Of a stretch of 64,000 bases of DNA, positions 8,412 to 47,579 are shown one piece after another. The position numbers and the translations under genes were made by a program. The stretch is from Gemmatimonadota bacterium (lineage in GTDB: Bacteria > JAAXHH01): assembly GCA_009835325.1 (NCBI GenBank), contig VXWP01000083.1:46735-110734 (forward strand). Direction: 5' to 3'. The notes under the pieces were generated by a model, which was given only the letters and a program-made list of their open reading frames with translations, did no database searches and was not told where the DNA came from. The first letter of the stretch is position 1, and every line of letters begins with the position of its first letter.

Positions 8412-10622
<2,211 letters not shown>

Positions 10623-21265: not shown

Positions 21266-21302
21266 CGGCCGGGTGTGGACCTGGGAACATGAGAGGCGTA
21301 CA

Positions 21303-29098: not shown

Positions 29099-29188
29099 CG
29101 AACGGCCCCGAGACCCGGCCAGCGGGAACGACGTGCATCTTCGACGTGACGGCTCTTCCGTCTGGTCAAGGCCCTGCCCTTCCCGTCG

Positions 29189-29935: not shown

Positions 29936-29950
29936 GACAGCATTCCTTTC

Positions 29951-31639
29951 TCAAAGAAAATCCAGGTCGGCGCCCAGGTGGGCGGGCAGGACGTGATCGG
30001 CGTATAACCGGCGCCAGCCCCGTTCGGGCGTTGGGGGAGGGGCATGACCGGCCTTCCGCCGGGCCAAATCCTCCTCCGGCACGCACAGGTCAAGCCGCCG
30101 GCCTTCCACGTCGAGTTCAATCGGGTCGCCGTCCCGTACGAGCGCCAGCGGTCCGCCGACCGCGGCCTCGGGACAGCAGTGCAGCACGACCGTACCATAG
30201 GCCGTGCCGCTCATCCGTGCATCGGAGACGCGCACCATGTCCGTGACCCCCCTTCTGGCCAGGTAGGCCGGAATAGGCAGCGACCCGGCTTCGGGCATGC
30301 CCATGGCCACGGGACCGGCGTTTCTCAGGACGAGCACGTGATCGGGAGTCAGTCCCAGTTTCGGGTCGTCAATCCGCGCGGCCACGTCGTCGGGGGATTC
30401 GAATACGGCGGCCGGACCGCGGTGGCGCTGGCGGTCGAGCGCTGCGGCGGCCCGTTTTATCAGTGCGCCGTCGGGCGCCAGGCTGCCGCGCAGGACGACC
30501 AGGGCGCCGGGTGGACCGACGGGGTCTTCCAGGGTGCCGATGGTATCCTGCCAGGCGGCCGGCGGGGCCGTGTCTTCCAGGATCTCTCCCAGGGACACGC
30601 CGTTCACGTTCAAGGCATCGGGATCCAGCCTGGATTCCAGGGCCTTCCACAGTACGGGGAGGCCGCCCGCCTTGTGGAAGTCCTCCATGTATCCCGTGCC
30701 CACGGGCTTGCAGTTCACCAGCACGGGCGTGTTCCGCGCCGCCTCGTGGAGGTCTTCCAGCGTTAGGGAGACGCCGGCGCGGCGTGCAATGGCGATGAGG
30801 TGGATCACGGCGTTGGTGGACCCGCCCAGCGCCGCGAGTACGACCGACGCATTGTGGAACGAAGCCCGGGTGAGGAACTTGCACGGATCCTCCCCGCACC
30901 GGGCCAGGTCCACGATGCGCCGGCCCGTCGTCACCGCCTGGCGTAGCCGGTCGCCCGATCCGGAGAGCGGCGTGGCCCCGCCGGGGAGCATCAGGCCCAG
31001 CGTCGCCGTGAGGCAGGCCATGGTAGAGGCCGTTCCCATCACCATGCACGTTCCGCCCGTGGGACACAGGGACTGTTCGATCTCCCCGATTTCCTTCCGG
31101 TCGATCTCGCCCGCCCGGTGCCGGAGCCAGTACCGCCGGCAGTCCGTGCAGGCGCCGAGACGTTCGCCCTGCCAGCTTCCCGTGCGCATGGCGCCGGTCA
31201 CCAGCGAGATCGCCGGCAGGCCAGCCGAAACGGCGGCCATCAACTGGGCCGGCACGGTCTTGTCACAGCCCCCCAGCAGCACGACGCCGTCCATCGGTTG
31301 CGAACGGATCATTTCCTCCGTGCCCATGGCCATCAGGTTGCGAAAGAGCATGGAAGTGGGCGAAAGCAGCGTTTCGGCCAGCGAGATGGTGGGAAAGACC
31401 AGGGCGAGACCGCCGGCCTGGGCGATCCCGCGCCGGACGCCTTCCACGAGAGCCGGCATATCCCGGTGACACGTGTTGTAATCCGATGACGTGTCGGCGA
31501 TGCCGATGATCGGGCGGTTGAGGTCTTCGCCGTCATAACCCGCGGAAGACAGGAACGCCCGCCGTAAATAGCGGCTGAACTCCGTATCGCCGTACCGGGT
31601 CAGGTTCCGGTCGATGCCCTTTATGCCAGTATCTGCCAT
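29951..31639 (-). CDS. IlvD/EDD-family dehydratase (dihydroxy-acid or sugar-acid dehydratase)
   Basis: 563 aa with IlvD/EDD motifs (GIADTSSDYNTCHRDM ... LLGGCDKTVP ... SGTAYGTVVLHCCPEAAVGGPLA). Start at MADTGIKGI. Confidence 0.8.
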   Translation of the reverse strand: MADTGIKGIDRNLTRYGDTEFSRYLRRAFLSSAGYDGEDLNRPIIGIADTSSDYNTCHRDMPALVEGVRRGIAQAGGLALVFPTISLAETLLSPTSMLFRNLMAMGTEEMIRSQPMDGVVLLGGCDKTVPAQLMAAVSAGLPAISLVTGAMRTGSWQGERLGACTDCRRYWLRHRAGEIDRKEIGEIEQSLCPTGGTCMVMGTASTMACLTATLGLMLPGGATPLSGSGDRLRQAVTTGRRIVDLARCGEDPCKFLTRASFHNASVVLAALGGSTNAVIHLIAIARRAGVSLTLEDLHEAARNTPVLVNCKPVGTGYMEDFHKAGGLPVLWKALESRLDPDALNVNGVSLGEILEDTAPPAAWQDTIGTLEDPVGPPGALVVLRGSLAPDGALIKRAAAALDRQRHRGPAAVFESPDDVAARIDDPKLGLTPDHVLVLRNAGPVAMGMPEAGSLPIPAYLARRGVTDMVRVSDARMSGTAYGTVVLHCCPEAAVGGPLALVRDGDPIELDVEGRRLDLCVPEEDLARRKAGHAPPPTPERGWRRLYADHVLPAHLGADLDFL

Positions 31640-32349
31640 GGTTGATCCAGGTGACGCATCCGCTTCGGCGTCGCCGTCTTGCGCATCAGGTCCCAATTGA
31701 GTTCGCTGCGATCGCCAGGAAGCCTGCGCCGGAGAAAGGCGAGTTCGGTCTCCGTACGGCAGGACGAACAGGCCAGCATGTTCAGCATACGACGGCGGTT
31801 TCCGCCGCCAAGAGCATTGTGCAGGGTCATCTGGTTGAACACGACGACATCGCCGGGCTCGTTACGCGGGGCGACGCAGGGTACTTCCTCCATTCCTATG
31901 CCCCAGAGCGCATGGGTATCGAGATTGCCCTTCCATCCCTGCCGATGGGAACCCGCCACGAATCGGAGGGCGCCGGTCACAGGAGTCAGGGGATCGAGAT
32001 ACATCGCCCATTTGACCTGGACAACCGGGTCTCCGTGACAGTCCGGATGCCACATGCCGTCACCGACATACAACTCGCCGCCGCTGCCCAGATAGTTGTA
32101 GTCCTCCCCCAGAAGGCCCGACAGCAGTCCGTCGACACCGGGGTGGTCGAGCAACGTACAGAGTCGTTCGCTGCGTTCGATGAAGCGTCCCAGACTCGAC
32201 CGGGCGGTTCCGTCGTGCACGATCCCGGCCTCACGGAACACCCGTTCGAATTCCTCGATGATCCAGGGAACCTCCTCGCGCAGGAGGCCCGGCAGTACGA
32301 GATATCCGAAATCGTCGAAAAACCGCTTCTGTCCGTCGCTCAGCGTCAT
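31621..32349 (-). CDS. Phytanoyl-CoA dioxygenase (PhyH) family oxygenase, paralog 2
   Basis: PhyH-like sequence (DGQKRFFDDFGYLVLPGLL ... WHPDCHGDP). Start at MTLSDGQ. Overlaps the IlvD-like start by 19 nt. Confidence 0.55.
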   Translation of the reverse strand: MTLSDGQKRFFDDFGYLVLPGLLREEVPWIIEEFERVFREAGIVHDGTARSSLGRFIERSERLCTLLDHPGVDGLLSGLLGEDYNYLGSGGELYVGDGMWHPDCHGDPVVQVKWAMYLDPLTPVTGALRFVAGSHRQGWKGNLDTHALWGIGMEEVPCVAPRNEPGDVVVFNQMTLHNALGGGNRRRMLNMLACSSCRTETELAFLRRRLPGDRSELNWDLMRKTATPKRMRHLDQPWQILA

Positions 32350-32350
32350 A

Positions 32351-33916
32351 TCAAGGGTCTCCCGGTCGACCGGGGCGGTCCAGCTCGATAGCGAGCCGCC
32401 TGCCGAAGCATTCTTCAAAGAGTTGCACGCGGCTTCTCGCTTCCGACAATTCGACGGTGACGTCCCGGCCGTCCCGTGGAACAACCTTCATGCACACCTT
32501 CCTGCTGCCCGTCTCCAGCCTGACGTCCTCGACGATCTGCGACCGGCTCCGATCCAGGTATTCAGACAGCCTGAGCAGCGAGGACAGCCGGTACACCATG
32601 GTCCGGTCTTCCTTCTTCAAAAGGGTCTGGTACCGGGAGAAATCCGGCCTGCCGCGCCGGTGATTGAGGCAGAGCCAGGCGATTGTCACGATTTCCCGGT
32701 GGTCGAATCCGGGCAGGCCGGCGTTGAGGATGATATAGGCCGAATGCTTGTGATGATCATAGTAATCGATCACCGTGCCGATGTCGTGCAGCATGGCCGC
32801 GGCCCACAGGTACTCCCGTTCGCATTTACCGTAACCATGCACTTTCTGGAGCTGATCGTACATGGAGAGCGACAAACGGGCGACGTGGCCGGTGTGGGCG
32901 CCCTCGTAACCGTATAGCCGCGCCAGGTTAAGGATCGTGAACCGGCGCAACCGGCCGATGCTGTCCGGTCTCGACGACGGCTTGAACGCCTCTTCGAAGA
33001 ACAGCCCTTCGCGCCGGCCCTGGCCGCTCACGGTCAGTTTCCGCGCGCCGGTCTTCCGCATCACGGAGGCCACGATCATGGCGCCGGCCAGGATGATGTC
33101 CTCTCTTTCCTTCTGCAACCCGGGGATCCGCCGCGACCGCTCGGAGACGGGCATGGACGCGATGCGTTCGATCAGCTTTTCCACCCGTCGCCGTTTCAGT
33201 TCGTAACCGTGCACGAGCCCAAGGGGGTACTTGCGTTCCATCCGGTCGATGCGGACCAGGGCGCGGACGACGCCCCCTACGCCGGCGATCGGTACCGTTC
33301 CGCGGGCCTTGAGCCAGTCGATGTCCTCCAGCGCCTGGTCGATGTCCGCGTCGAGCCGCTTCGTCTGTCCGGTGGTAACCTCCGGTCCGGGAAAGTAGGT
33401 CTCGGTGGTCCTGACCGTACCGAAAGGCGTGGATGCCCCCTTCGAGAACGCGCCGTCCCGGATCAACCCGATTTCCGCGCAGCCGCCGCCGACGTCCAGG
33501 ATGATCCCGTCAAAGAGACCCAGGCTGTTGATCACGCCCACGGTGCTGTAGAACGCCTCCTCTTCGCCGCTGATCAGCCGGAAGTTCAACCCGGTGCCGC
33601 GGGCGATCTCCTCGAGGAAGCCGGCGCCGTTCCCGGCGTCCCGTACCGCCGCGGTAGCCACGGGCAGTATATGGTCTATATCCTGCGCGTCGCAGAATGA
33701 CTTGAACATGCGGACGGCGTCCAGCGCCCGGGATCGCGCCGCGGAGCGAAGCCGCCTGCCCCCGGCGATGCCTTCACCCAGGCGGACCCGCCTGCTGACT
33801 TCGTCGGTGATCTTGAAAACCCGGTCTTGCGTGAACTGGGCGATCATGAGCCGGGCCGTGTTGGAACCCAGATCGATTATGGCGACCCGTCGCTCGAGCG
33901 GCGCGAAGGAATACAA
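32351..33916 (-). CDS. ppx: Ppx/GppA exopolyphosphatase / guanosine pentaphosphate phosphohydrolase with C-terminal HD domain
   Basis: AIIDLGSNTARLMIAQ N-terminal actin-like fold motif and HD-domain histidines (MLHDIGTVIDYYDHHKHSAY). Confidence 0.8.
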   Translation of the reverse strand: MYSFAPLERRVAIIDLGSNTARLMIAQFTQDRVFKITDEVSRRVRLGEGIAGGRRLRSAARSRALDAVRMFKSFCDAQDIDHILPVATAAVRDAGNGAGFLEEIARGTGLNFRLISGEEEAFYSTVGVINSLGLFDGIILDVGGGCAEIGLIRDGAFSKGASTPFGTVRTTETYFPGPEVTTGQTKRLDADIDQALEDIDWLKARGTVPIAGVGGVVRALVRIDRMERKYPLGLVHGYELKRRRVEKLIERIASMPVSERSRRIPGLQKEREDIILAGAMIVASVMRKTGARKLTVSGQGRREGLFFEEAFKPSSRPDSIGRLRRFTILNLARLYGYEGAHTGHVARLSLSMYDQLQKVHGYGKCEREYLWAAAMLHDIGTVIDYYDHHKHSAYIILNAGLPGFDHREIVTIAWLCLNHRRGRPDFSRYQTLLKKEDRTMVYRLSSLLRLSEYLDRSRSQIVEDVRLETGSRKVCMKVVPRDGRDVTVELSEARSRVQLFEECFGRRLAIELDRPGRPGDP

Positions 33917-34935: not shown

Positions 34936-35892
34936 CTAGACGACGCCCGACTCGTCGATCGTGAGGTTGCAGGCATCCCCGTCGAGGGTGGCCCGCACGC
35001 CGAGGGGCAGCGTCGCCTTGTACGTGCCGTGACCGATGCCCAGACCGTAGATGACCGGAATCCCCAGTGGTTTCAGCCGGTCGATGAACACTTCCTCGAT
35101 ACTGAAACTGCCGTAGGGGAACGCGGGGTTGTGCGGCGCGCTGCCGCACCCGGCGCATTCGCCGATCACGATGCCGCTGACACGGCTCAGCCGGCCCGCC
35201 TGCAGCAGTTGCGTGAGCATCCGGTCTATCCGTTGGGGCTCTTCGCCCACGTCCTCGAAGAACAGAACGGCGCCGTCGTAATCGAATTCATAAGGCGTTC
35301 CCACAGCGGCCGCGAGCAACGAAAGCGTACCCCCGATCAGCGGTCCGCTGGCCCGGCCACCGTGTATGGCCTGCACCGGCGGCATGTCGTCGGGGTGCGG
35401 AATCTCACCGATGGGGTCGGTTCCCGCAACCGCCTTCACAAAGGCTTCCCGATTATACGGTTGAAAAACGGGGCTCATGTCGGATGAGACCATGGGGCCC
35501 CAGAAGGTGACCAGTCCGGTATGCCGTTGAATCGCCCCGTGGAGGGCCGTGATGTCGCTGTAGCCGACGAAGACCTTCGGATGGGCGCGGATGACGTCGT
35601 ATTCCAGGTCGGGTAGCATGCGGACGGACCCGTACCCCCCGCGAAGACATGCGATTCCCTTGATTTCCGGGTCGGCGAACATGGCCTGGAGGTCGGCCAG
35701 GCGGTCGGCGTCCCTGCCGGCCAGGAAACCGTGGCGATCCGAATGGTGCGTGGCGGTCACCGTGCGAAATCCGAGGGCTTCGATCGACCGGCGGCCGTTC
35801 TTCAGGGCACTCGGCTGGGCCGAGCGGCTTGCCGGTGCGACGATCCCGATGGTATCACCCGGTTTCAATGCCGGGGGTTTCAAAATATCCAT
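34936..35892 (-). CDS. ldcA: LD-carboxypeptidase (peptidase S66, LdcA-like)
   Basis: GDTIGIVAPAS ... GYSDITALH nucleophile motif is typical of S66. Start at MDILKPP. Confidence 0.75.
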   Translation of the reverse strand: MDILKPPALKPGDTIGIVAPASRSAQPSALKNGRRSIEALGFRTVTATHHSDRHGFLAGRDADRLADLQAMFADPEIKGIACLRGGYGSVRMLPDLEYDVIRAHPKVFVGYSDITALHGAIQRHTGLVTFWGPMVSSDMSPVFQPYNREAFVKAVAGTDPIGEIPHPDDMPPVQAIHGGRASGPLIGGTLSLLAAAVGTPYEFDYDGAVLFFEDVGEEPQRIDRMLTQLLQAGRLSRVSGIVIGECAGCGSAPHNPAFPYGSFSIEEVFIDRLKPLGIPVIYGLGIGHGTYKATLPLGVRATLDGDACNLTIDESGVV

Positions 35893-36089
35893 GCTAAATG
35901 AATATAGATTCGCGGGTATCGCCGTCAACTTCTTTGCCCGCCGGTTTACGGGCAGTCGAATTCTGTTGTCAACCCGGTATCCAGCCCTATTTTTGGAGCG
36001 GATAGTTTGAATAAACCGGGCTGTATCGTGTATACATTCCTGATGTGCGTACAGACCTGAAAACGCCGGGATTCCGGAGCCTTGATTCC

Positions 36090-36770
36090 ATGACGAAAAC
36101 GCGCTTTTCCCGCCGGTCGTTTATCGCCAGCACCGCTCAGGCGACCGGAGGCGTGATCACCCTGGGCGTGCTGTCCCGTACCGGCGCGCTGGACGCCCAG
36201 GAGGCGCCGCCCTACGAACACGAGTGGCAGCACCTGGACGCCCACCAGGGACGTACCGTCGACGCGCTGACCCGGATGATCATGCCGACTGACGACAATG
36301 GTCCGGGTGCTGCGGAAGCCCGGGTAGTCGTCTATATCGACCGGGCGCTGGGCGCTCACCGGACCGAATACAGGGAGACGTATGAATCGGGCCTGGCCGC
36401 CTTCGATCAGTACTGCCTGAATGCCCACGAAGCGCCTTTCCTGGACCTGGACGGCAGGACACAGCGTCGGGCGCTGATGGGCATGGACCGTCCGAGGTCT
36501 CCCGGGACCTGGCCGGAGGACGCCCCCATGGGCGCCCGGGACTTTCTGCGCATGGTGGTTACCCATACCATGGAGGGCATGTTCAGCGATCCTTCGTACG
36601 GCGGCAACTACCGCGAGACCGGCTGGAAGCTGATCCGGTTTCCGGGCCGGGCGCCGTTCGGCTACGATCCCCCCTTCAGCGAGTTCGACATGACCATTCC
36701 GGAAACCGAATATCCCGAATGGAAACCCTACGACGGTCCCATGAAGAGCCGGATCATCGGCGAGGAGTAG
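36090..36770 (+). CDS. Gluconate-2-dehydrogenase subunit-3-family small subunit with twin-arginine (Tat) signal
   Basis: MTKTRFSRRSFIASTAQATGGVITLGVL is a Tat signal, followed by a ~200 aa PF13618-like body. Immediately upstream of the GMC flavoprotein gene. Confidence 0.6.
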   Translation: MTKTRFSRRSFIASTAQATGGVITLGVLSRTGALDAQEAPPYEHEWQHLDAHQGRTVDALTRMIMPTDDNGPGAAEARVVVYIDRALGAHRTEYRETYESGLAAFDQYCLNAHEAPFLDLDGRTQRRALMGMDRPRSPGTWPEDAPMGARDFLRMVVTHTMEGMFSDPSYGGNYRETGWKLIRFPGRAPFGYDPPFSEFDMTIPETEYPEWKPYDGPMKSRIIGEE

Positions 36771-36783
36771 ATCCGAAGCCTCC

Positions 36784-38448
36784 ATGTCCCTACCCAATCC
36801 CAATATACGACGGCCGGACGTAATCATCATCGGCACCGGAGCCGCGGGCGCGGTCCTGGCGAAGGAGTTGAGCACGAAGGGACTGCGCGTGGTCGCCATG
36901 GAAATGGGGTCCTTCAGGAAGACCCGCCATTTCGACCAGGACGAGCTTCAGGCGATGCATCCCGCCAGCAACAATCCTGACCATCCCAACATCTACCGCC
37001 ACGACCAGCCCAATACGTACCGGCAGTCGTCGGACGCGCAGGCCACCGAAGACCACGGGATCCACATGCAGAGCACCGTCGGCGGCAGCACGCTCCACTA
37101 CACGGGCATTTCATGGCGGCTTCACGAGAACGATTTCAAAGAACGAAGCCTTTACGGCGACCTGGACGGCGCCGACGTGCAGGATTGGCCCATCGATTAC
37201 TGGGACCTGGAACACTACTACGAGAAAGCCGAGTACGAGATCGGTATTTCGGGCCTGGCCGGCGCCAATCCCTTCGATCCGCCGCGCCGCCGGCCCTATC
37301 CCATGCCCCCGGTGCCGCGGACCAGCTCGGGCGCCCTGGCCGACCTGGCCGCCCGGAAACTCGGCTGGCATTCCTACCCGGCGCCTCTGGCCATCAACTC
37401 CCGGGAATACGGCGGAAGATCGCCGGTCATGAACTGTGGTTTCTGCGAAAGCTACGTCTGTACCATCCAGGCGCGGTCCAGCATGCTGGTCACCATGATT
37501 CCGCAGGCGCTGCGAACGGGCAACTGCCAGATCCGGGCCGACGCCTGCGTGCGGGAGATCGTGGTCGACGAGGACGGCAGGGCGGAAGGGGTCGTCTACC
37601 TGGACAAGGACCTTCGCGAGCACCGATTGGAAGCCCGCGCGGTGATCGTGTGCTGCAACGGCGTCCATACCCCCCGCCTGCTGCTCATGTCGAAATCCAA
37701 TCTCTTTCCGGACGGCCTGGCCAACAGCAGCGGCAAGGTGGGCAAGCACCTGATGTTCAACTACTACCAGTCCGCCCGGGGGTTCTTCGATAAGGACCTG
37801 AACGAGTACAAGGGCGTCATGGATTCCCGGATCATACAGGATTTCTACGATCCGGACCCGGACAAGTACGGCTTCTTCGGCGGGGGCGTGGTCGAACCGC
37901 GGGGCGACGGCGAAACCATTTCCTTCGCCAACCTGAACATGCCGCGTCTGCGCAGGTGGGGCGCCCGTCGCAAGAAGTGGATCATGGACAACTACACCCG
38001 GTACATGGTCGCCCTCACCAGCATGCAGTCCATGTCCCAGGAATCCAATTCGATCGACCTCGATCCCGACGTCAAGGACAAGTGGGGCCTGCCCGTCCCG
38101 CGCGTGACCTACAACGTGCATCCCAATGAACATAAGCTCGGGGACTTCTTCCGCGAACGCGCCCGCGAACTGCTCGACGCCGCCGGCGCCCACGGGGTCG
38201 TGGCCTCGCCGAACTTCGTACCCCGCGGCGACGCCCATCTCATGGGTACCTGCCGCATGGGCAACGATCCGGCGACGTCGGTGGTCAACAAGTTCAACCA
38301 GGCCCACGACGTGGACAACCTGTTCATCGTGGACGGATCGTCTTTCGTCACCAGCGGCAAGAGCAATCCGACGCTGACGATACAGGCGCTGGCCTTCCGC
38401 TGCGCCGACTACATCGTCACCCAGATGGCAAGGCTCAATATCAGATAA
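36784..38448 (+). CDS. GMC-family FAD-dependent oxidoreductase (periplasmic sugar/glycoside dehydrogenase large subunit; no own signal peptide, likely Tat hitch-hiker)
   Basis: Rossmann motif DVIIIGTGAAGAVLAKEL, GMC C-terminal motifs (HLMGTCRMGNDPATSVVN). Length 554 aa. Confidence 0.8.
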   Translation: MSLPNPNIRRPDVIIIGTGAAGAVLAKELSTKGLRVVAMEMGSFRKTRHFDQDELQAMHPASNNPDHPNIYRHDQPNTYRQSSDAQATEDHGIHMQSTVGGSTLHYTGISWRLHENDFKERSLYGDLDGADVQDWPIDYWDLEHYYEKAEYEIGISGLAGANPFDPPRRRPYPMPPVPRTSSGALADLAARKLGWHSYPAPLAINSREYGGRSPVMNCGFCESYVCTIQARSSMLVTMIPQALRTGNCQIRADACVREIVVDEDGRAEGVVYLDKDLREHRLEARAVIVCCNGVHTPRLLLMSKSNLFPDGLANSSGKVGKHLMFNYYQSARGFFDKDLNEYKGVMDSRIIQDFYDPDPDKYGFFGGGVVEPRGDGETISFANLNMPRLRRWGARRKKWIMDNYTRYMVALTSMQSMSQESNSIDLDPDVKDKWGLPVPRVTYNVHPNEHKLGDFFRERARELLDAAGAHGVVASPNFVPRGDAHLMGTCRMGNDPATSVVNKFNQAHDVDNLFIVDGSSFVTSGKSNPTLTIQALAFRCADYIVTQMARLNIR

Positions 38449-38495
38449 CAGGCTCGCGCTTTAGAACGTGTTTTAATCACTTTAACTGTGGAGGC

Positions 38496-39773
38496 ATGAT
38501 CATGGGTTTCGGGAGTGTACTGAAGAACGGCTTTACGCGGCGACGGTTCATGAAGGGCGCCTTGCTGGGCGCCGGCGCCGTGGCCACCGGTTCAGCATGG
38601 GAAATCGCGCAGGCGATGGCGACCGGAAAGAAGGCCGGCGACGTCCGCGGATACGGCGTCGAGCCGGGTCGGGTCAATATCGGATCCAACGAGAATCCGC
38701 TCGGCGCGTCCCCGCGCGCTGTCGCGGCCATCGCCGAGAACCTGCACAAGATCAACCGGTACGATTTCGGGGTGGATCTGCCCGTCCGTCTCAACAAGCA
38801 GCACAACGTCCCGGGCGTCGAGGGTTTCGAACTGAGTTTTGAAGACATGCGGTCGTTCATGCGTTTCCGGGAGCTGAACCGGGTCATGGTCACGCCGGGT
38901 TCCGGTCCAATTCTTCAGGCACTTGCCGTCATCGCCGCGGGCAACGGCGGAGAGTGCATCGAGGCGGTCCCGGGATATGGATCGGTCGCCCGGGGCTTTC
39001 AGAGCTTTCAGATGATGGGAAAGGACGTCAGCGTCGTCCGCGTGCCGACCACGGGTGATTTCGTACACGACCTCGGCGCAATGAAAGCGGCCATCACCCC
39101 GACGACCTCCCTGATCGTCGTCACCAACCCCAACAATCCTACCGGAACGATCGTGCCTTACGATGAACTGGTGTCCCTGGTGGATGCGGCGCCCGAGCAG
39201 GCCATCGTGCTCATCGACGAAGCCTATATCCACTTCGTACGCGACCCGAACTACCAGGATGCAGTGAAACTCGCCCTGGAGCGCGACAACGTGGTGGTCG
39301 CCCGCACCTTCTCCAAGATCTACGGCCTGGCCGGCATGCGTATCGGTTACGCCGTCGGCGGCCAGCGCATGATGAATATGCTGATGGCGCACATGGGATT
39401 CTTCGGCGGCGGGCTGAGCACGCTGGGCATGCACGCGGCGCTCGCGGCCCTGGACGATGATGAATTCGTAGACCGCACGCTGACGGTCGTAAATGACGGT
39501 AAGGAGTACCTGTCCGCCGAGTTCGACCGTCTGGGTCTGGCGTACACGCCGAGCCACGGTAATTACATGATCGTGGACGTGGGGCGGGACAGCCGCCGGA
39601 TGTCCGGCGCACTGTTCAGGCGCGGCGTCATGGTTCGGAGCGGTTCTGGATACCGCACCCGTGAGGTCGATCTCCTTGGCAACCACCTGCGGGTGACCAT
39701 CGGCAAGCCCGATGAACTCGAGGTCTTCGTGAATGAACTCGAGAACATTCTGGGTGGCTCGAGTCAGGGTTAG
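38496..39773 (+). CDS. Class-II (HisC-like) PLP-dependent aminotransferase with a strong Tat signal peptide
   Basis: N-terminus FTRRRFMKGALLGAGAVATGSAWEIAQA (twin-arginine, h-region, AxA). HisC-like NIGSNENPLGASP. PLP lysine region FSKIYGLAGMRIGY. Confidence 0.75.
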   Translation: MIMGFGSVLKNGFTRRRFMKGALLGAGAVATGSAWEIAQAMATGKKAGDVRGYGVEPGRVNIGSNENPLGASPRAVAAIAENLHKINRYDFGVDLPVRLNKQHNVPGVEGFELSFEDMRSFMRFRELNRVMVTPGSGPILQALAVIAAGNGGECIEAVPGYGSVARGFQSFQMMGKDVSVVRVPTTGDFVHDLGAMKAAITPTTSLIVVTNPNNPTGTIVPYDELVSLVDAAPEQAIVLIDEAYIHFVRDPNYQDAVKLALERDNVVVARTFSKIYGLAGMRIGYAVGGQRMMNMLMAHMGFFGGGLSTLGMHAALAALDDDEFVDRTLTVVNDGKEYLSAEFDRLGLAYTPSHGNYMIVDVGRDSRRMSGALFRRGVMVRSGSGYRTREVDLLGNHLRVTIGKPDELEVFVNELENILGGSSQG

Positions 39774-39805
39774 ATTGACGATCGGTATCGAAGCAATCAG
39801 GACCA

Positions 39806-39845
39806 GGCCCCCGGTGGTACTAACTGCCGGGGGCTTTGCCTGTTT
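39806..39845 (+). terminator. Rho-independent terminator candidate after the aminotransferase gene
   Basis: GCCCCCGG ... CCGGGGGC stem followed by TTTGCCTGTTTG. Confidence 0.45.
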
Positions 39846-39938
39846 GTAGGGTCTTTGCAGGGTCGCCCGTAAGTATACCGCTACGTATGCGGCAGCTCGC
39901 GGGCGGATTGAGGTCGTAGACCGAAGGAGTTCATCGAC

Positions 39939-41771
39939 ATGGCGTCAGACGAACGGACAGGCCGCCGAATCCACCGGAACCGTGGTTCGGTGCCACGCAC
40001 CGCCGAGATCGTCCGGCAGACCCTGTACCAACGCAAGTACACCGTTATTGCGGTGATCCTCATGATGCTTGCGGGATCGGCCGTCATGCTGGTCCAGCCC
40101 CTGTTCTACAAGATGCTGTTCGACCGGGTGATACCCGAATCGGACACCGGCCTCCTGTGGTGGCTGCTGGCGGGGATGGTGGCGACCCCCCTGGTGTCGA
40201 TCGGCATTTCCTATTTTGAAGGACACCTCAGGGTCCGGATAGGCTATACGGTAACGCAGGCCCTGCACAAGGCGGTATTGAACCATCTGTTGCACGCAAG
40301 GCTCGATGCCGTCGAGAAGATACCCACGGGCAGTATGGTCTATCGGGTAACGCGAGATGCCGGCAAGATCGGCGACATGTACATCAAGCAGGAATTGCTG
40401 CCGGTGGTTTCAAGCGCGATCGTACTGGCTGGCGTGCTGGTCATGATGTTCCTGTTGAACGCCGAGCTGGCGGCCGTTTTCTGCGCCGCTTTGCCGGCGA
40501 CCTATCTCGTGACCCGGTATCTGACCCGGTACTCGAAGGAAATGGACCGCGAGGTGAACGACCAGGGCAAGGCGTCGGAAAGCTTTCTGTACGAAGTATT
40601 CAACGCCTTTCGTACGATACGCATGTTCAACGGAGAGGGCCATGCCAGGATGCGTTGGGCCGGGCACATGGACAGATTCACCCGGATCAAGATTCGTGGC
40701 GCGGCCCTCCACGATATCATGCTCACTTTTCCGAACGAGGTCATCAACGGACTGGTACTCGGCGTGCTGCTGGGCTACGGCGCTTTCCAGGTCATGGATG
40801 GCACAGTCACCATCGGCAGCCTGGTGGCGATCATGGCCTATGCGCCGCGGGCGTACGCCGCGCTGCGGACGGTGCTCACCACCTATACCGGCACACGGCT
40901 GATCAAAGTCTCGGTCGAGAGTCTGAACGAGTTGTTCGATCTTCCCCTGGAACCGGGCCTGCGCGGAAACCTCAGCCGTCAACCGACCGAAGTCGACCCT
41001 CAACCGGCCGGAGTCGAACCGCCGGCCGGAGTCGAACCGCCGACCATCGAGTTCGTCAACGTTAGTTTCAGTTACGAACGGGGCTATGAGCTGAAGGACC
41101 TGTCGTTCAGGGCGATCAGCGGTGAATTCGTCGGTATCGTGGGGCCCAGCGGTGGGGGAAAGACCACGATCATCGATCTGCTGACCCGATTGCAGGAACC
41201 GGAAAGCGGCCGGATCGCCGTCGCCGGACGGGACATTCGCGAGATGTCCCTCGAATCGCTTCGAAATCAGATCGCCGTGGTCTCCCAGGACGTATTCATC
41301 TGGAACGCCACGCTCGCCGAAAACATCGCTTATCCGGATACCGGCTATCGTCCGGAGGCGGTTGAGCAGGCCGTGCGTGCTTCGGCATTGGAAGCGTTTA
41401 TCGATGGCCAGCCGAAGGGCCTCGAAACGATCGCGGGAGAGGGCGGGGTCGCGCTTTCGGGCGGCGAGAAACAACGCATCGCCCTGGCACGGGCTTTCAT
41501 GCGTGAACGTTCGCGGATACTGATTCTCGACGAGGCCACTTCCGCCCTGGATGCCCTGGCCGAGGAGAAGATCAGGACGGCCGTTGAAGAGGCAAGAATC
41601 GGACGAACCACGATCGCGATCGCCCATCGCCTGTCCACGATTCGCCATGCCGACCGTATCCTGGTCATCGACGGAGGAAAGCTGGTCGAATCGGGCACGC
41701 CGCGAGAACTCCTGGAACGCGGCGGTATCTTCGCCCGAATGTACGACGCTCAGGCGCTGGATTTCGAGTAG
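39939..41771 (+). CDS. ABC exporter, fused permease/ATPase (MsbA-like type I exporter)
   Basis: Six N-terminal TM helices, Walker A GPSGGGKTT, signature LSGGEKQR, Walker B ILILDEATS. The linker has a tandem PAGVEPPAGVEPP. Confidence 0.85.
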   Translation: MASDERTGRRIHRNRGSVPRTAEIVRQTLYQRKYTVIAVILMMLAGSAVMLVQPLFYKMLFDRVIPESDTGLLWWLLAGMVATPLVSIGISYFEGHLRVRIGYTVTQALHKAVLNHLLHARLDAVEKIPTGSMVYRVTRDAGKIGDMYIKQELLPVVSSAIVLAGVLVMMFLLNAELAAVFCAALPATYLVTRYLTRYSKEMDREVNDQGKASESFLYEVFNAFRTIRMFNGEGHARMRWAGHMDRFTRIKIRGAALHDIMLTFPNEVINGLVLGVLLGYGAFQVMDGTVTIGSLVAIMAYAPRAYAALRTVLTTYTGTRLIKVSVESLNELFDLPLEPGLRGNLSRQPTEVDPQPAGVEPPAGVEPPTIEFVNVSFSYERGYELKDLSFRAISGEFVGIVGPSGGGKTTIIDLLTRLQEPESGRIAVAGRDIREMSLESLRNQIAVVSQDVFIWNATLAENIAYPDTGYRPEAVEQAVRASALEAFIDGQPKGLETIAGEGGVALSGGEKQRIALARAFMRERSRILILDEATSALDALAEEKIRTAVEEARIGRTTIAIAHRLSTIRHADRILVIDGGKLVESGTPRELLERGGIFARMYDAQALDFE

Positions 41772-41830: not shown

Positions 41831-42562
41831 CTACAGGACCGGGCTCTCCAGGAACACCGTCACGCCCATATCCACGTATTTACTCCGATCTTCACGCGCG
41901 TGGTTCCTGAAGCACACCATCGTTTCCGAATCCTCAAGCTGGTCGACGACGTGCCGGACGCAGTCGTCCACGTTCCGGAAGGGGTGGTGCGGGTGTGCTT
42001 CAATACTGTACATGAGGTCGTTCGGGCCGAAGGACAGGCAGTCCACGCCCGCTATGGCCAGCGACCGTGCACCGGTCACCGCAGGTATTGATTCGAGCTG
42101 TATCATCAGCACGCCGTAGTTGTTCCACCATGCGGCGTACTGCAGCCGGTCGTCCCCGACTTCGCTTACTTTGCGCCGCGCCCCGCCTCCCCAGCTTCGC
42201 ATGCCCTGCTGAGGATAGTAGAAGAAGTCGACCGCCTCCTCGACTGTCCCTTCAGTTTCAACCTGGGGCACTTCGATCCCCGCCGGTCCGAGATCGAGCA
42301 GGTTGCCGACCAGGTAACTGTGATAGGTGTGCTTGATGCGGAACACAACGTCGGCGTCCACCGTATCGGCTTTATCACAGAAGGCCACCAGCCGTTCCTC
42401 GCTGAAGGCACTGTGCTGTCCATCCACCCACAGAAAATCGAACTGTCCGGATTCGACGACCTTTTTCAACTGATCAAGCGTATGGGTCATGCCCACATTG
42501 GCGCCAATGACCTGTTCCCCCGCACCGATGCGCTGTTTCAGGTTGCGTTCCGCCATTTGCAT
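41831..42562 (-). CDS. HpcH/HpaI-family aldolase (2-keto-3-deoxy-sugar-acid aldolase)
   Basis: HpcH/HpaI family motifs (QFDFLWVDGQHS ... IESIPA). Start at MQMAERN, with an AGGAG RBS. Confidence 0.7.
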   Translation of the reverse strand: MQMAERNLKQRIGAGEQVIGANVGMTHTLDQLKKVVESGQFDFLWVDGQHSAFSEERLVAFCDKADTVDADVVFRIKHTYHSYLVGNLLDLGPAGIEVPQVETEGTVEEAVDFFYYPQQGMRSWGGGARRKVSEVGDDRLQYAAWWNNYGVLMIQLESIPAVTGARSLAIAGVDCLSFGPNDLMYSIEAHPHHPFRNVDDCVRHVVDQLEDSETMVCFRNHAREDRSKYVDMGVTVFLESPVL

Positions 42563-42778
42563 CTCCTGTCGTGATGGCCTGCATGCACTGGTGTAAAGTG
42601 ATACTGTGGACCTGTCTGTCCCGTCTGAACCGTCCTTGCAGGGTCCGGGCAACCCCGATTATAATGAGCGATGCCCCTTTTCGATAGCCCAATTTGGGGA
42701 TAAGTACATTCATTTGCACATTTCGCAGTTGCCGAGACTACCGGCCGGTCTATCTTGACATCAGACCGTCATCCCCGA

Positions 42779-42842
42779 GTTCAGGCTGACAGGGCCCGGC
42801 GTTCAGGCTGACAGGGCCCGTCGTTCAGGCTGACAGGGCCCG
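42779..42842 (+). repeat. Three tandem copies of GTTCAGGCTGACAGGGCCCG (22-bp period) upstream of the uxuA-like gene
   Basis: Perfect copies at 42779-42798, 42801-42820 and 42823-42842, 36 nt before the ATG at 42879. Confidence 0.85.
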
Positions 42843-42878
42843 GAGCCCGGTCCACCGTGACCGTATTGGAGGAGCCCG

Positions 42879-43856
42879 ATGTATCTGCACGACGTCGTAA
42901 ACTGGACCGATTTTGATGATGAAACGCTCAGTTTCTATCGCGCGATCAGCGTGGACATGATCCAGCTGGACCTCAGGACAGGGGGAGCATCCGAGGCGGA
43001 AATGCACGTGAGGGCCGGCAAGGACAGCACGGAACTGTTAGAACGGGCCCGGGAGAAGACAGCGTCTCACGGATTGAAGCTGCAGACCGTCTTCATGCCG
43101 GTACTGGAGGGGATCACCCTGGCCACGGAGGAACGGGACGAGGAACTAAACGCTTTCCTGCGGCTCATCGAAAGTCTGGGAAAGGCGGGGATACCGACCC
43201 TGGCCTGGAATTTCAAGCCGATGGGCAACTTCAGGACCCCCTCCGACATCGGGCGCGGCGGCGCGGTGTACAGCACATTCGACTATGCCGAATTCGACCG
43301 GAACCGTCCTCCGCCCCATGATCCGCCCGTCTCCGAGGCGGTGATGTGGGACAACATGGTCGCCTTCATGCGCGCCGTGGTCCCGGCCGCCGAGAAGGCC
43401 GGCGTCAACCTGGCGCTTCACCCCGACGACCCGCCCACTCCCGAACCGCTGGGCGGCGTCGCCCAGATCTGTTCCACGCTGGAGCATTTCGGCCGCATCT
43501 TCGACACGGTGCCCAGCGATAATCACCGGATGCTCTTCTGCCAGGGATGCATGACTGAACTGGCGGGTCCTCAGAAGGTATATGATATCATTGCCGAGAT
43601 GGCCTCCCGGAACAAGATCGCCCTGGTGCATTTCCGGAACGTCCGGGGACAACTTCCCCGCTTCGCCGAGGTCTTCATCGACGAGGGCGAAGTGGATATG
43701 CGCCGGGCCATGGAAACCTATCGCGATAACGGGTACTTCGGACCCTTCGGCATGGACCACACCCCGGGGTTTCCCCAGGCGCGGGCCGGATGGGCCGGCC
43801 GTGCCTTTGCCAATGGCTATATCCGCGCGACGATTCAGACGGTCTACGGACGATAG
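42879..43856 (+). CDS. uxuA: UxuA-family D-mannonate dehydratase (short form)
   Basis: VNLALHPDDPPTPEPLGGVAQICSTLEH matches the UxuA [24 protein letters not shown]. Also LAWNFKPMGNFRT and LVHFRNVRG regions. Confidence 0.6.
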   Translation: MYLHDVVNWTDFDDETLSFYRAISVDMIQLDLRTGGASEAEMHVRAGKDSTELLERAREKTASHGLKLQTVFMPVLEGITLATEERDEELNAFLRLIESLGKAGIPTLAWNFKPMGNFRTPSDIGRGGAVYSTFDYAEFDRNRPPPHDPPVSEAVMWDNMVAFMRAVVPAAEKAGVNLALHPDDPPTPEPLGGVAQICSTLEHFGRIFDTVPSDNHRMLFCQGCMTELAGPQKVYDIIAEMASRNKIALVHFRNVRGQLPRFAEVFIDEGEVDMRRAMETYRDNGYFGPFGMDHTPGFPQARAGWAGRAFANGYIRATIQTVYGR

Positions 43857-43867
43857 GAGAACCGAGC

Positions 43868-45058
43868 ATGCGAATTACACATTTTGAAATCCTGCGGGTT
43901 CCACCGAGCTGGGTATGGCTGAAGATTCACACGGACACCGAGTTGTTCGGCTGGGGCGAACCCTACCTGGAAAACCACCCCGAAAGCGTCATCGCCGAGG
44001 TGCGACGACTCGAGCCGCTGCTTATCGGCGAGGACCCCTGCCGCGTGGAATCGCTCTGGCACAAAATGTACGAAGGCGGTTCCGGTTACGTGGGCGGACC
44101 GGTGAAGATGAGCGCGATCAGCGGGATCGACATGGCGCTCTGGGATCTCGCGGGGAAGGCCGCGGGACTGCCGGTCCACGGCATGCTGGGCGGGGCCTGC
44201 CGCGACCGGATTCGCATGTATCGCGCCGTGGGGGGCCAACTTCCTTGGTGCGTCGAGCCCGGTCAGCCCTACGACGCGGGTTGGGATCCTTCCCGGGAAC
44301 CGGACTGGAATTTTCCAGAGGGCCACGAGGAGGCGGCCCGGGTCATCATCGAAGAATGGGGGTTCCGGTGCATGAAACTGCACGTGGGCATGGGCACCGG
44401 ACTGGAGCCTACCGCCGAAATCGATCGGATCGCCGAAGCCTTCGCCGCCGTGCGGAAGGGCGCCGGTCCCGACGTCGAGGTGGCCGTGGATATCCACAAT
44501 CCCCACCCCGCGATGGCAAAACAGATGATCTCCGCCCTCACGCCCCATCGTCCGCTGTTTATCGAGGAACCCATGCCTGTGGAGCGTGTCGATGTACTCG
44601 CGGACATCGCGCGCAACAGCGAAGTCCCCATCGCCGCCGGGGAACGGTGGATGGGCAAGTGGATCTTCTACGATGCCCTGCGCAAGAATGCCCTGTCCGT
44701 GATGCAGCCGGACCTGTGCCACGCAGGCGGCATCACCGAGTGCCACAAGATCGCGGTGATGGGTGAAAGCGCCTACGCTAAACTCGCCCTGCACTGCCCG
44801 TTGAGCCCATTAGCCCTGGCCGCGTCCATCCAGATCGACGCCTGCGCGTCGAATTTCCTCGTCCAGGAACACAACGAGGTAAATTGCTGGCGCGAGGAAG
44901 GACGGACGTATATCGGCAAGGGCTACTTCGCCGAGCCTTTCGTGCTGGACGAGGACGGTTGCGTGGCGGTGCCCCAGGGACCGGGACTCGGCGTGGACCT
45001 CGATCCGGAGGGATTCGAACAGATCATGGCCCGGCCATGGCGGGACGTGCGGGGCTGA
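43868..45058 (+). CDS. Enolase-superfamily dehydratase, mandelate racemase subgroup (ManD-like)
   Basis: N-terminal capping domain (ITHFEILRVPPSWVWLKIHTD...GWGE) and metal-binding barrel residues (DIHNPHP, IEEPMP, ERW). Confidence 0.75.
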   Translation: MRITHFEILRVPPSWVWLKIHTDTELFGWGEPYLENHPESVIAEVRRLEPLLIGEDPCRVESLWHKMYEGGSGYVGGPVKMSAISGIDMALWDLAGKAAGLPVHGMLGGACRDRIRMYRAVGGQLPWCVEPGQPYDAGWDPSREPDWNFPEGHEEAARVIIEEWGFRCMKLHVGMGTGLEPTAEIDRIAEAFAAVRKGAGPDVEVAVDIHNPHPAMAKQMISALTPHRPLFIEEPMPVERVDVLADIARNSEVPIAAGERWMGKWIFYDALRKNALSVMQPDLCHAGGITECHKIAVMGESAYAKLALHCPLSPLALAASIQIDACASNFLVQEHNEVNCWREEGRTYIGKGYFAEPFVLDEDGCVAVPQGPGLGVDLDPEGFEQIMARPWRDVRG

Positions 45059-45113
45059 TACCGGCAATCGCGCTCCCGCGCCTGACGTGCAATCGTTACG
45101 ACATCATCGGCTG

Positions 45114-46244
45114 CTACACGCCTACCCGTGCCCACCTTGCGGTCTTGATGGAATCATCGCCGGCGTAGTAGACGACGAACACTTCGTTGCCCGGTAGCCG
45201 CACCATCCGGGGATGCCCGAACCGCCAGCGTTCCATATCGCCCCACAGTTCCGACGACGTCCGCCCGCCGCCGGCGCCGGATTCCGTGCCGGCGGTGCTG
45301 TCGTAGACCAGGAGATCCCGCTCGCGATCCCAGTGCACACCGAAATCCTCACTGATGGACAGCACGATGCCCGGAGGATCCCGTCGCCGCGGATAGGCGG
45401 CCAGCAGCCGGTCGCCGCCCAGGGACAGCGGCTGGCAGTGCTGGCCGGGCAAGCCGGTACACCGCGGGATGGTCCACGACCGGCCGTCCGGGGTGCCGAA
45501 GGCAATATGGATATCGATATCCGATCCCGCCTTGAAATCATGGGTCCAGAACATGGCGACGAGGCGCCCGTCAACGGGGTGGATAGCCAGCCGCTGGTCC
45601 CAGTAGGCCAGCGCGTTGTCCGGATGGCGGGCTACGGTGGCGTACTCCGGCCAGGTCCGGCCGCCGTCCCGGGAGAAACGAAGGCGCGCCGCGGGCCGGC
45701 CGGGTGCAGGATCCTCGTATACCTTCCACTGTTCATAAGGTTGCGCCAGGACGCCGCCGGGCAAACGGATGACGGCATGCGAACAGGGTGAAGCGGCGAG
45801 ATGGGGAGACGTGTCCATGCGCCGCGGCGGGCTCCAGGTGCAGCCGCCGTCAGCCGACTCGACGTGCAGGATGCGCATGGGCAGAAGGCCCTGCGTGTCC
45901 GGGTGGATAAAGGGAAGATCCGGGTCGGATCGGTCGACCCACAGGACCGTCGCCGTGAGCCTGCCTGGATTAAGCTCCGTACTGGTCAGCCCCTTCATTT
46001 CACCCGGCGTACCGTCCCAGGATCCCCTCCCGTATCCGTCGTAGCGAAGTTCCCAGGTACGGCCCAGGTCCGCGGTCGCCCAGATGCAGGCGTGCCCGTC
46101 CGACGAGTCGCGTTCAGAGCCCCAGCGACCCGATACGAGTATCGTTCCGTCATGCAGCCGGTTGATGGTGGTGAAGGCACAGTTAACGCGGTGACCAGGG
46201 ATTGTATGGCCGTCGGAGACCGTTCCGGAATCAAGGACTCGCAC
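45114..46244 (-). CDS. BNR-repeat (sialidase/exo-alpha-sialidase-like) beta-propeller protein, no signal peptide
   Basis: At least four S-x-D-x-G-x-T-W motifs (TADLGRTWEL, SADGGCTWSP, SRDGGRTWPE, SEDFGVHWDR). Confidence 0.65.
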   Translation of the reverse strand: MRVLDSGTVSDGHTIPGHRVNCAFTTINRLHDGTILVSGRWGSERDSSDGHACIWATADLGRTWELRYDGYGRGSWDGTPGEMKGLTSTELNPGRLTATVLWVDRSDPDLPFIHPDTQGLLPMRILHVESADGGCTWSPPRRMDTSPHLAASPCSHAVIRLPGGVLAQPYEQWKVYEDPAPGRPAARLRFSRDGGRTWPEYATVARHPDNALAYWDQRLAIHPVDGRLVAMFWTHDFKAGSDIDIHIAFGTPDGRSWTIPRCTGLPGQHCQPLSLGGDRLLAAYPRRRDPPGIVLSISEDFGVHWDRERDLLVYDSTAGTESGAGGGRTSSELWGDMERWRFGHPRMVRLPGNEVFVVYYAGDDSIKTARWARVGV

Positions 46245-46283
46245 GCAAGCCTCACAATACGTAACCCGTTCCTGAACAAAATG

Positions 46284-47375: not shown

Positions 47376-47579
47376 GGGTGGTCTTTGTCCTCGTTCAGGT
47401 GTGAGATTCGGATGGGTGGATATGGGACCGACGGTAACGCCGGCGGCCTTCGATGTCAAGGAGATCGCACCGGAGACGGCACCGTCCTGCTTTCGGTACC
47501 CCGTCTTGAGGATTCGACGCGGTTCAGCACCGCGGGATCCGCCCGCGACAACCGCTTCGATACGCACCGGATTTAATAC

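Follow-up and report, generated by a model that had tools for sequence, protein, structure and literature searches.

A conserved gene trio linking a predicted Tat-dependent GMC-family dehydrogenase to a Tat-signal HisC-fold aminotransferase in Gemmatimonadota and other little-known bacteria

What would a pyridoxal 5'-phosphate (PLP)-dependent aminotransferase be doing outside the cytoplasm, and why should its gene stand directly behind those of a two-subunit dehydrogenase? The question is raised by a stretch of 64,000 nucleotides from a Gemmatimonadota bacterium (contig VXWP01000083.1, positions 46,735 to 110,734; the whole 64-kb stretch is hereafter the window), in which a first-pass annotation had pointed to three tightly linked plus-strand genes at 36090-39773 and had read them as a periplasmic module that would make an amino-sugar or amino-glycoside. 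The three co-directional open reading frames (ORFs) are indeed there and have the composition of real genes, with a GC content at the third codon position (GC3) of 0.79-0.85 against 0.43-0.50 at codon position 2. They encode, in order, a small subunit, a flavin adenine dinucleotide (FAD) dehydrogenase of the GMC family and an aminotransferase, and the domain assignments of that annotation are confirmed by matches to PF13618, PF00732/PF05199 and PF00155, respectively. Our principal finding is that the linkage noticed in the window recurs in other genomes: aminotransferase orthologs (at least 50% identity) lie beside a small-subunit/GMC pair in 10 of 11 informative loci, in four surrounding contexts. 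Both a PLP transaminase exported by the twin-arginine translocation (Tat) pathway and a GMC dehydrogenase exported by a hitch-hiker subunit are already known; the conserved pairing of the two appears to be the new part, and no described GMC/Tat-aminotransferase pairing was found in the literature. The features that carry the argument are the following, where BcGDH is the FAD-dependent glucose dehydrogenase (FAD-GDH) of B. cepacia and a slash marks the end of a signal peptide.

36090-36770, plus strand: small subunit of the PF13618 "gluconate 2-dehydrogenase subunit 3" family, 226 aa, predicted Tat carrier (hitch-hiker)
36090-36197, plus strand: twin-arginine signal peptide of the small subunit (MTKTRFSRRSFIAS...GALDA/QE), read from the sequence
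36784-38448, plus strand: catalytic subunit of a GMC-family FAD dehydrogenase (PF00732, PF05199), 554 aa, no signal peptide
37096-37098, plus strand: codon of His105, aligned with the covalent FAD-binding histidine of BcGDH alpha (GGSTLHY against GGTTWHW)
37432-37461, plus strand: loop with three cysteines, NCGFCESYVC (C-x2-C-x4-C), at the alignment position of the 3Fe-4S loop in BcGDH alpha and putatively cluster binding
38490-38494, plus strand: GGAGG ribosome-binding site of the aminotransferase gene, 7 nt before the ATG at 38502
38502-39773, plus strand: HisC-fold class I/II PLP aminotransferase, 423 aa (425 aa from an alternative ATG at 38496)
38502-38615, plus strand: twin-arginine signal peptide of the aminotransferase (MGFGSVLKNGFTRRRFMKGALLGAGAVATGSAWEIAQA/MA), read from the sequence
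39315-39317, plus strand: Lys274 codon; this residue of the SK motif is the one that forms the Schiff base with PLP and aligns with Lys214 of E. coli HisC

The order small subunit-GMC-aminotransferase is shared by the window, loci L091 and L092 (aminotransferase identity about 90%), L081 (81%), L082 (65%), L085 and the contig of homolog P0022 (57% each), L171 (50%) and L177. L093 and L094 (64%) carry the three genes in another order and among cytochromes, namely aminotransferase, cytochrome c, NapC/NirT-like cytochrome, small subunit, GMC and c3-like cytochrome. The flanking genes change from one context to the next, with a divergent S66 peptidase gene upstream and an ABC exporter gene downstream in the window and its closest relatives, Nramp and Amidohydro_2 genes upstream in L085, L177 and the P0022 contig, and HTH_34 and DUF4153 genes upstream with a Tat-signal Amidohydro_3 gene downstream in L171. 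Members of the trio come from metagenome-assembled genomes, to which NCBI gives the labels Gemmatimonadota (where a small subunit is 97% identical), Zixibacteria (a candidate division; the L085 contig) and Candidatus Latescibacteria (L171), and in a neighbor-joining tree the GMC-linked aminotransferases form a single clade, nested in a larger group of Tat-signal aminotransferases and apart from cytoplasmic HisC. That the trio is kept across contexts, labels and aminotransferase identities down to 50% argues for functional coupling of its products.

Would these products meet in the periplasm? The small subunit begins MTKTRFSRRSFIAS, in which the signal S-R-R-S-F-I-A followed by ALDA/Q is recognizable by eye; its homologs (226 aa) begin at the same Met, and all eight small subunits aligned keep the RR motif, which bears out the Tat signal first read from this one sequence. 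The protein matches PF13618 along the entire profile (positions 1-135 of 135, E 6e-28, 98.3 bits at a cut-off of 23.4), and its predicted structure has a helical core with a predicted local distance difference test (pLDDT) score above 85 for residues 41-180. A search of the PDB with the single small-subunit sequence gave no match, a profile of the eight sequences found a single target, the exported amine oxidase 5ttj, and matched it in its Tat signal, and neither search detected sequence similarity of the 226-aa protein to the solved BcGDH gamma subunit. The gene stands directly upstream of the GMC gene, as it does in nine related loci, and the GMC protein has no signal peptide of its own, since its N terminus (MSLPNPNIRRPDVIIIGTGAAG) runs straight into the FAD-binding fold, which starts at residue 12 and includes the GxGxxG motif. 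In BcGDH-type complexes a small Tat "hitch-hiker" subunit exports the catalytic subunit, whose cysteine loop holds a 3Fe-4S cluster leading to a cytochrome c subunit (PMC6719666). The hitch-hiker layout proposed for the window agrees with this: a Tat small subunit followed by a signal-less GMC protein, as in BcGDH (gamma-alpha-beta) and the Gluconobacter fructose dehydrogenase (FDH).

The aminotransferase signal, read by eye, is near-consensus for Tat, with T-R-R-R-F-M-K (TRRRFMKG), the hydrophobic stretch GALLGAGAVATGSAW and AQA/M. It is not an artifact of start-codon choice: an S/T-R-R-x-F motif with a hydrophobic stretch is present in all 70 best homologs (P0001-P0070, 36-96% identity), and the RR at positions 15/16 is invariant in a 33-sequence alignment (A1). 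The ATG at 38502 (MGFGS...) is likelier than the one at 38496 because of the GGAGG at 38490-38494, and homologs P0001-P0012 share the N terminus that it gives. HisC-type homologs from P0071 onward are cytoplasmic, with a PY.PGKP arm and no RR motif. Residues 1-32 of the aminotransferase model are unstructured (pLDDT <50), as expected for a signal peptide. Export of the aminotransferase, the small subunit and the GMC protein to the periplasm is predicted on these signals, and the host looks diderm because kdsA/B-, lptB- and rpoN-like N-termini, identified by eye from N-terminal sequences, occur upstream in the window.

Which class of dehydrogenase does the GMC protein represent? It matches the alpha subunit of B. 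cepacia FAD-GDH (6a2u_B) over its full length (residues 7-545, E 2.6e-60) and the large subunit of Gluconobacter FDH (7w2j_A), again at full length, with an E value of 4.9e-58. The pyranose and C-glycoside oxidases 7qf8, 9fl2, 4mif and 8qve match in the C-terminal domain only (E 1.5e-13 to 2.5e-6), a comparison made among members with solved structures, which the two-subunit bacterial glycoside 3-dehydrogenases do not have. The NeoQ-type 6'-oxidase 7dve also matches at the C terminus only (E 8e-13), and choline oxidase gives a weak, partial match within the range of these enzymes (1e-13 to 1e-6). The first-pass assignment to a glycoside-dehydrogenase type is therefore not upheld, the nearest relatives being FAD-GDH alpha and the FDH large subunit at 1e-60 and the glycoside oxidases and NeoQ-type enzyme lying at 1e-13 or weaker. 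The histidine aligned with His105 binds FAD in BcGDH (PMC6719666), and the C-terminal catalytic His (GDAHLMG) is aligned with BcGDH alpha as well. Of the three Cys in the loop, set against Cys212/218/222 of BcGDH, the first stands three columns off and the other two align exactly, the spacing being C-x5-C-x3-C there and C-x2-C-x4-C here; Cys213, which takes part in a disulfide in BcGDH, is absent here. The motif CG[FY]CE..xC is kept in 9 of 9 GMC sequences compared, including an outgroup at 47-53%, and the loop may bind an Fe-S cluster. Judged by sequence, the GMC protein is of the FAD/Fe-S glucose/fructose dehydrogenase class.

Such an architecture is not restricted to sugar oxidation, because the two-subunit, Tat-exported GMC enzyme GmcAB of methanotrophs is proposed to oxidize acetol and 2-propanol in the periplasm (PMC8630023). 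GmcAB, which we liken to the window pair by description and not by sequence, combines a large GMC subunit with a small Tat subunit and has no dedicated cytochrome subunit; it differs in having no associated aminotransferase.

The aminotransferase belongs to PF00155 (E 6.9e-45, 154.2 bits at a cut-off of 19.7) and falls below the cut-offs of the narrower family models: 219.8 bits against 276.55 for TIGR01141 HisC, 216.6 against 444 for NF006580 (PRK09105-type), in a match that starts at residue 11 and takes in the signal region, and 162.5 against 500 for NF051461 PtaA (E 1.1e-47, residues 36-412). The models for CobD (1.6e-38) and GntC (6e-32) match as well, and at E <= 0.01 no match to PF01041 (DegT/DnrJ/EryC1) was found, the Pfam matches being PF00155, PF00266 and PF04864. 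The best PDB sequence match is 4r2n (Rv3772, a phenylalanine aminotransferase; E 2.5e-38, 32% identity), and the best folds for the model (pLDDT 86) are 3ly1, 4r2n and HisC structures, with TM-scores of 0.8-0.87 on the targets and, for 3ly1, a Foldseek E value of 4e-27 and a TM-score of 0.87 on the target. Rv3772 (HisC2 of M. tuberculosis) and the Pectobacterium protein 3ly1, the closest solved sequences and folds, have the same PLP-binding residues; they differ by their low identity (25-32%) and by lacking the 38-residue Tat signal and the extra insertions of the window protein. Residues N211, D241, Y244, S273, K274, R282 and R399 are conserved, and Arg399 (HisC Arg335), which binds carboxylate or phosphate, is kept with the PLP residues relative to E. 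coli HisC. By contrast with cytoplasmic HisC proteins, the N-terminal PY.PGKP arm is absent, its place taken by the signal plus GKKAGDVRGYGV, and GSGPIL, which aligns with the GADE/GSNE motif, has no acidic residue; in E. coli HisC that acidic residue and the N-terminal Tyr arm bind the substrate. An insertion of ~25 residues is present relative to the E. coli protein, with clade-specific insertions at about residues 105-130. The loss of the acidic residue and the arm, the insertion gained and the scores below cut-off mean that the enzyme is not a housekeeping HisC. On its family and residue matches it is an alpha-amino-acid-type transaminase, and not a sugar aminotransferase.

A precedent for its predicted location is PtaA of Pseudomonas fluorescens and P. 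aeruginosa, a HisC-like class I/II PLP transaminase of pyoverdine tailoring that is exported folded by Tat with its PLP and, in the periplasm, converts the pyoverdine glutamate to 2-oxoglutarate, acting on a free alpha-amino/alpha-carboxy group (PMC6206403). PtaA-like genes also occur in pyoverdine non-producers, and there is so far no explanation for how PLP would be regenerated in the periplasm (PMC6206403). The window protein shares the fold class, the Tat signal and a match to NF051461 and, with its score far below the 500-bit cut-off, is not a PtaA ortholog; it also differs in having no pyoverdine or nonribosomal peptide synthetase (NRPS) context, in its link to a GMC gene, which is not reported for PtaA, and in its clade-specific insertions. 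PtaA shares the fold and is on record as a PLP transaminase that Tat exports to the periplasm; the first-pass view that this is not a described system leaves it out of account, together with the hundreds of uncharacterized Tat-signal HisC-like proteins that we found.

The remaining features of the locus concern its transcription.

35966-35993, plus strand: possible sigma-70-like promoter (TTGTCA-16-TATTTT, 9/12 matches) within the 160 nt that separate the divergent genes of the S66 peptidase and the small subunit
39805-39836, plus strand: 14-bp GC-rich stem-loop 3' of the aminotransferase stop, likely a terminator or an mRNA-stabilizing hairpin
39939-41771, plus strand: MsbA-like ABC exporter (PF00664, PF00005), a neighbor

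The promoter is a weak candidate, since the promoter/terminator scanner finds sigma-70-like sites in the region at the number expected for shuffled sequence. Between the small-subunit stop and the GMC start lie 13 nt, and between the GMC and aminotransferase genes 47-53 nt, with no significant secondary structure in the latter spacer (z 0.31). The segment 39774-39850 folds at -38.9 kcal/mol (z -4.4), which none of 200 shuffles equals, and the hairpin within it recurs in L081 and L092, where changes at the apex of the stem compensate one another. The U-tract that follows (UUUGCCUGUUUGU) is imperfect, and the consensus scanner overlooked the hairpin; the "clean terminator" of the first-pass annotation is for this reason slightly generous, and a stem-loop does separate the trio from the exporter gene. 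The latter is found 3' of the aminotransferase gene in the closest relatives only (L081, L092 and L096, aminotransferase identity at least 81%), not in L082, L085, L171 or L177, and is probably a separate unit outside the conserved core. The trio itself may form one transcription unit, going by its spacing and hairpin. An Rfam scan of 35700-40100 for a riboswitch that would name a ligand gave no match at E <= 1.

How might the two enzymes work together? The reading that we favor, at a probability of roughly 0.45, is that the trio is a unit whose products, a respiratory dehydrogenase of the FAD/Fe-S type and a PLP transaminase, would both be placed in the periplasm and share a common carbonyl compound there, probably a 2-oxo acid. 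As is known for the family, the small subunit would bind the signal-less FAD/Fe-S GMC protein in the cytoplasm and carry it through the Tat pore. The aminotransferase, to go by its conserved signal and the example of PtaA, would fold around PLP and be exported on its own Tat signal. The dehydrogenase would then oxidize a secondary alcohol to a carbonyl compound, its substrate perhaps being an alpha-hydroxy acid, an aldonic acid for instance, or, failing that, a ketol or polyol, and electrons would pass from the Fe-S center of the cysteine loop to a c-type cytochrome encoded elsewhere in the genome. Finally, the HisC-fold aminotransferase would replace the oxo group by an amino group taken from an alpha-amino acid in the periplasm. 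Overall, a hydroxy compound and an amino acid would give an amino compound and a 2-oxo acid, with two electrons delivered to the respiratory chain; put differently, the dehydrogenase would supply the stoichiometric oxo-acid acceptor of a periplasmic transaminase. Oxidation of a 2-hydroxy acid to a 2-oxo acid is our guess at the favored reaction because the aminotransferase is of the alpha-amino-acid class, and it is also the reaction of the enzyme after which the small-subunit family is named. A shared carbonyl compound is argued for by the survival of the trio through flank turnover and a change of gene order, and by the need of a transaminase for an oxo-acid partner.

Several observations weigh against this account. 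The alpha-hydroxy-acid guess has the class of the aminotransferase as its sole basis, and even the reaction type is not certain, since the HisC fold also hosts decarboxylases and cyclodehydratases, as the CobD and GntC matches recall. The electron acceptor is unaccounted for, because the CxxCH motif is absent from all called genes of the window; the first-pass annotation was right that a cytochrome c gene is missing nearby, and this is a difference from BcGDH, which has a multihaem cytochrome c subunit. Among ~50 distinct Tat-aminotransferase loci outside the clade, none has a GMC gene nearby. No GMC gene was found within 10 kb of any of 80 loci from a scan of a genome collection with the aminotransferase alignment, but these serve as a negative control only, having been found by generic HisC motifs with no close relative of the aminotransferase among the matches listed.

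The remaining objections also speak for the main rival, which we regard as somewhat unlikely: that the GMC/small pair and the aminotransferase are independent exported neighbors, the one a self-contained respiratory dehydrogenase of sugars, polyols or alcohols and the other a general periplasmic amino-acid transaminase, their adjacency reflecting shared ancestry or at most co-regulation. GMC orthologs in L172/L173 (68%) are accompanied by three cytochrome genes with no aminotransferase gene within 8 kb, and the aminotransferase ortholog of L083 (58%) has no GMC pair upstream, on a contig that stops 140 nt past the gene; neither partner strictly needs the other beside it. The outgroup GMC pairs of L174 and L175 (Acidobacteriota, ~52% identity) have no aminotransferase nearby. 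The neighbors of the wider Tat-aminotransferase family are heterogeneous, with M24, M28 and M1 peptidases dominant, and the unrelated S66 peptidase, 2-Hacid_dh and Ppx genes are syntenic too across L081, L082, L083 and L093, so that some of the linkage may be inheritance and not selection. Independence fits less well with a trio that has outlasted four contexts and an altered gene order while its flanks turned over, that is kept down to 50% aminotransferase identity and under three phylum-level labels, and that has a short GMC-aminotransferase spacer and its sole strong hairpin 3' of the aminotransferase gene. Of the dehydrogenase-aminotransferase module first proposed for the window, then, conserved adjacency stands, and dependence of the GMC pair on the aminotransferase does not.

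Some of these loci deserve further description. The cytochrome genes that flank the GMC/small orthologs in L093 (9526-14096) and L172 (5922-10458), which are 68% identical to the window pair and 82% identical to each other, are three of c type, one monohaem, one NapC/NirT-like with 3 CxxCH motifs and one c3-like with 4, and are of other kinds than the cytochrome c subunit of BcGDH. L083 was rejected as a clean counter-example, given that its contig ends 140 nt after the aminotransferase gene and that in L093 the GMC pair lies downstream. The block directly before the L083 aminotransferase (7313-9754) is the one that precedes the small subunit-GMC-aminotransferase genes in L171 (2521-5175), consisting of a ~200 aa membrane protein, an HTH_34 regulator and a CreD/DUF4153 membrane protein; this common block suggests that the GMC pair of L083 was lost or relocated. 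In the 9.5-Mb genome of L175 (6610-10915), a GMC homolog (53%) without small subunit stands between two PALP-family (PF00291) PLP enzymes, a different kind of GMC-plus-PLP pairing.

The amino-sugar product put forward by the first-pass annotation now seems improbable. On that account the GMC protein would be a glycoside or sugar 3- or 6'-dehydrogenase and the aminotransferase would aminate the keto-sugar, in a periplasmic analog of NeoQ/NeoB or NtdC/NtdA. The pairs NeoQ/NeoB, NtdC/NtdA, GnnA/GnnB and WbpB/WbpE do resemble the trio in that a carbonyl made by a dehydrogenase is aminated by a PLP enzyme encoded at its side, NeoQ-type enzymes are themselves GMC flavoproteins, and in the window the dehydrogenase-then-transaminase order is joined to predicted export of both. 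HisC itself transaminates a ketone free of carboxylate, imidazole acetol phosphate, and a ketose-type substrate is on that ground chemically possible. Sugar-acid genes (IlvD/Edd, PfkB, HpcH aldolase, UxuA, enolase superfamily, BNR) also lie nearby. Yet such pairs use DegT-family or other sugar aminotransferases on sugars or nucleotide-sugars in the cytoplasm, whereas here a HisC-fold enzyme with no PF01041 match, and not of class III, whose relatives are HisC and aromatic aminotransferases such as Rv3772, is encoded beside an Fe-S respiratory-type GMC protein, with Tat signals carried or borrowed. The Tat-aminotransferase family neighbors exported M24, M28 and M1 peptidases and not glycan genes; the GMC match to 7dve (8e-13) and to pyranose and C-glycoside oxidases (1e-13 to 1e-7) is confined to the C terminus, against 1e-60 for FAD-GDH/FDH; and no glycosyltransferase or secondary-metabolite gene flanks the trio in any context examined.

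The sugar-acid-type catabolic genes around the trio lie at 28139-31696 (minus strand) and 41831-47567 and comprise a PfkB kinase, an IlvD/Edd dehydratase, an HpcH/HpaI aldolase, UxuA-like and enolase-superfamily genes and two BNR_2 sialidase-like genes; this setting is kept in L081 and not in the other trio contexts. At 23038-24156 (minus strand) the window encodes a solute-binding protein of a tripartite ATP-independent periplasmic (TRAP) transporter (PF03480 DctP, E 2e-57) with a Tat-like motif and a lipobox (MDQIKRREFLKTASTAGLAGGAALMAGCGSG); TRAP systems are organic-acid importers. Four PhyH-family (phytanoyl-CoA dioxygenase-like) genes are found at 21273-22277 (plus), 31621-32484 (minus), 53661-54638 (minus) and 54886-55677 (plus), and PhyH genes recur near the aminotransferase in L082, L083, L087 and L172.

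Least probable is a catabolic order in which the aminotransferase acts first, an exported amidohydrolase or peptidase freeing an amine or amino acid, the aminotransferase making the carbonyl and the GMC protein oxidizing it further (aldehyde hydrate to acid), for which speak the Amidohydro_3 with a TRRMFLK Tat motif next after the aminotransferase in L171, the paralogous Tat-signal aminotransferases that follow exported M24 and M28 peptidases, and the oxidation of aldehydes by some GMC enzymes (choline and HMF oxidases), and against which stand the action of HisC-fold enzymes at a secondary carbon to give ketones or 2-oxo acids and not aldehydes, the lack of any obvious further GMC oxidation of a 2-oxo acid, the presence of an amidohydrolase in just one of the four contexts, and the absence of a signal peptide from the Amidohydro_2 of the Zixibacteria-labeled context. 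The same absence led us to reject this Amidohydro_2 (L085/L177 context) as an exported lactonase feeding the dehydrogenase.

The wider family offers some further pointers to what Tat-signal aminotransferases act on. Outside the GMC-linked clade their neighbors are varied, and exported exopeptidases (M24, M28 and M1) recur, which points to amino acids as substrates. In a marine clade (38-42% identical to the window aminotransferase) the aminotransferase gene comes last in same-strand clusters, with Sec-signal M24 and M28 peptidases directly upstream in L097 (4427-9215), L108 (105-4787) and L128 (37-3312). In L105 (4315-9236) and L117 (4366-9254) a pyrroloquinoline quinone (PQQ) dehydrogenase fused to a cytochrome c domain stands with an M24 peptidase beside the Tat-signal aminotransferase, a second, unrelated periplasmic dehydrogenase in an operon with such an enzyme. 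From their gene content the marine clusters appear to form a periplasmic pathway in which peptides give amino acids and these give oxo acids. Beside other members lie an M1 peptidase carrying a type-IX secretion tail (L013) and a Tat-signal flavin amine oxidase (L047).

A paralog at 41% identity follows a signal-less class III aminotransferase and an Ig_CycH-domain lipoprotein in L002 (7915-11131), L090 (8012-11221) and L087 (2596-11218). One member of this paralog cluster, P0125 (41%), is encoded on the same 4.2-Mb contig as the L081 trio, from which we infer at least two exported HisC-like enzymes in that genome. L120 (6510-9350) has tandem class I/II aminotransferase genes, the downstream one being a Tat-signal family member. 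The Amidohydro_3 protein of L171 (9383-11074; 564 aa, D-aminoacylase-like), next after the trio, has a near-perfect Tat motif, MAWTRRMFLK (TRRMFLK), and four proteins predicted to depend on Tat stand there in a row.

What, then, might the trio mean for these bacteria? To run, a transaminase in the periplasm has to be supplied with an oxo acid in stoichiometric amounts, in a compartment without central metabolism; a dehydrogenase encoded next to it would solve this problem and would tie nitrogen shuffling to respiration. Taken at its broadest, and held tentatively, the shared-carbonyl account has the trio as a conserved three-gene unit of Fibrobacteres-Chlorobi-Bacteroidetes (FCB)-group bacteria (Gemmatimonadota-, Zixibacteria- and Latescibacteria-labeled) for respiration-coupled transamination outside the cytoplasm. 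PtaA is apparently the sole exported HisC-fold transaminase to have been studied, while in our searches enzymes of this kind turned up commonly in bacteria from sea and soil, as a rule with exported peptidases or dehydrogenases for neighbors. If the coupling is not real, the locus holds two ordinary exported enzymes side by side. If it is, the trio would be the first known periplasmic dehydrogenase-transaminase pathway, a new pathway type in poorly known phyla, and would explain where exported transaminases find their amino acceptor.

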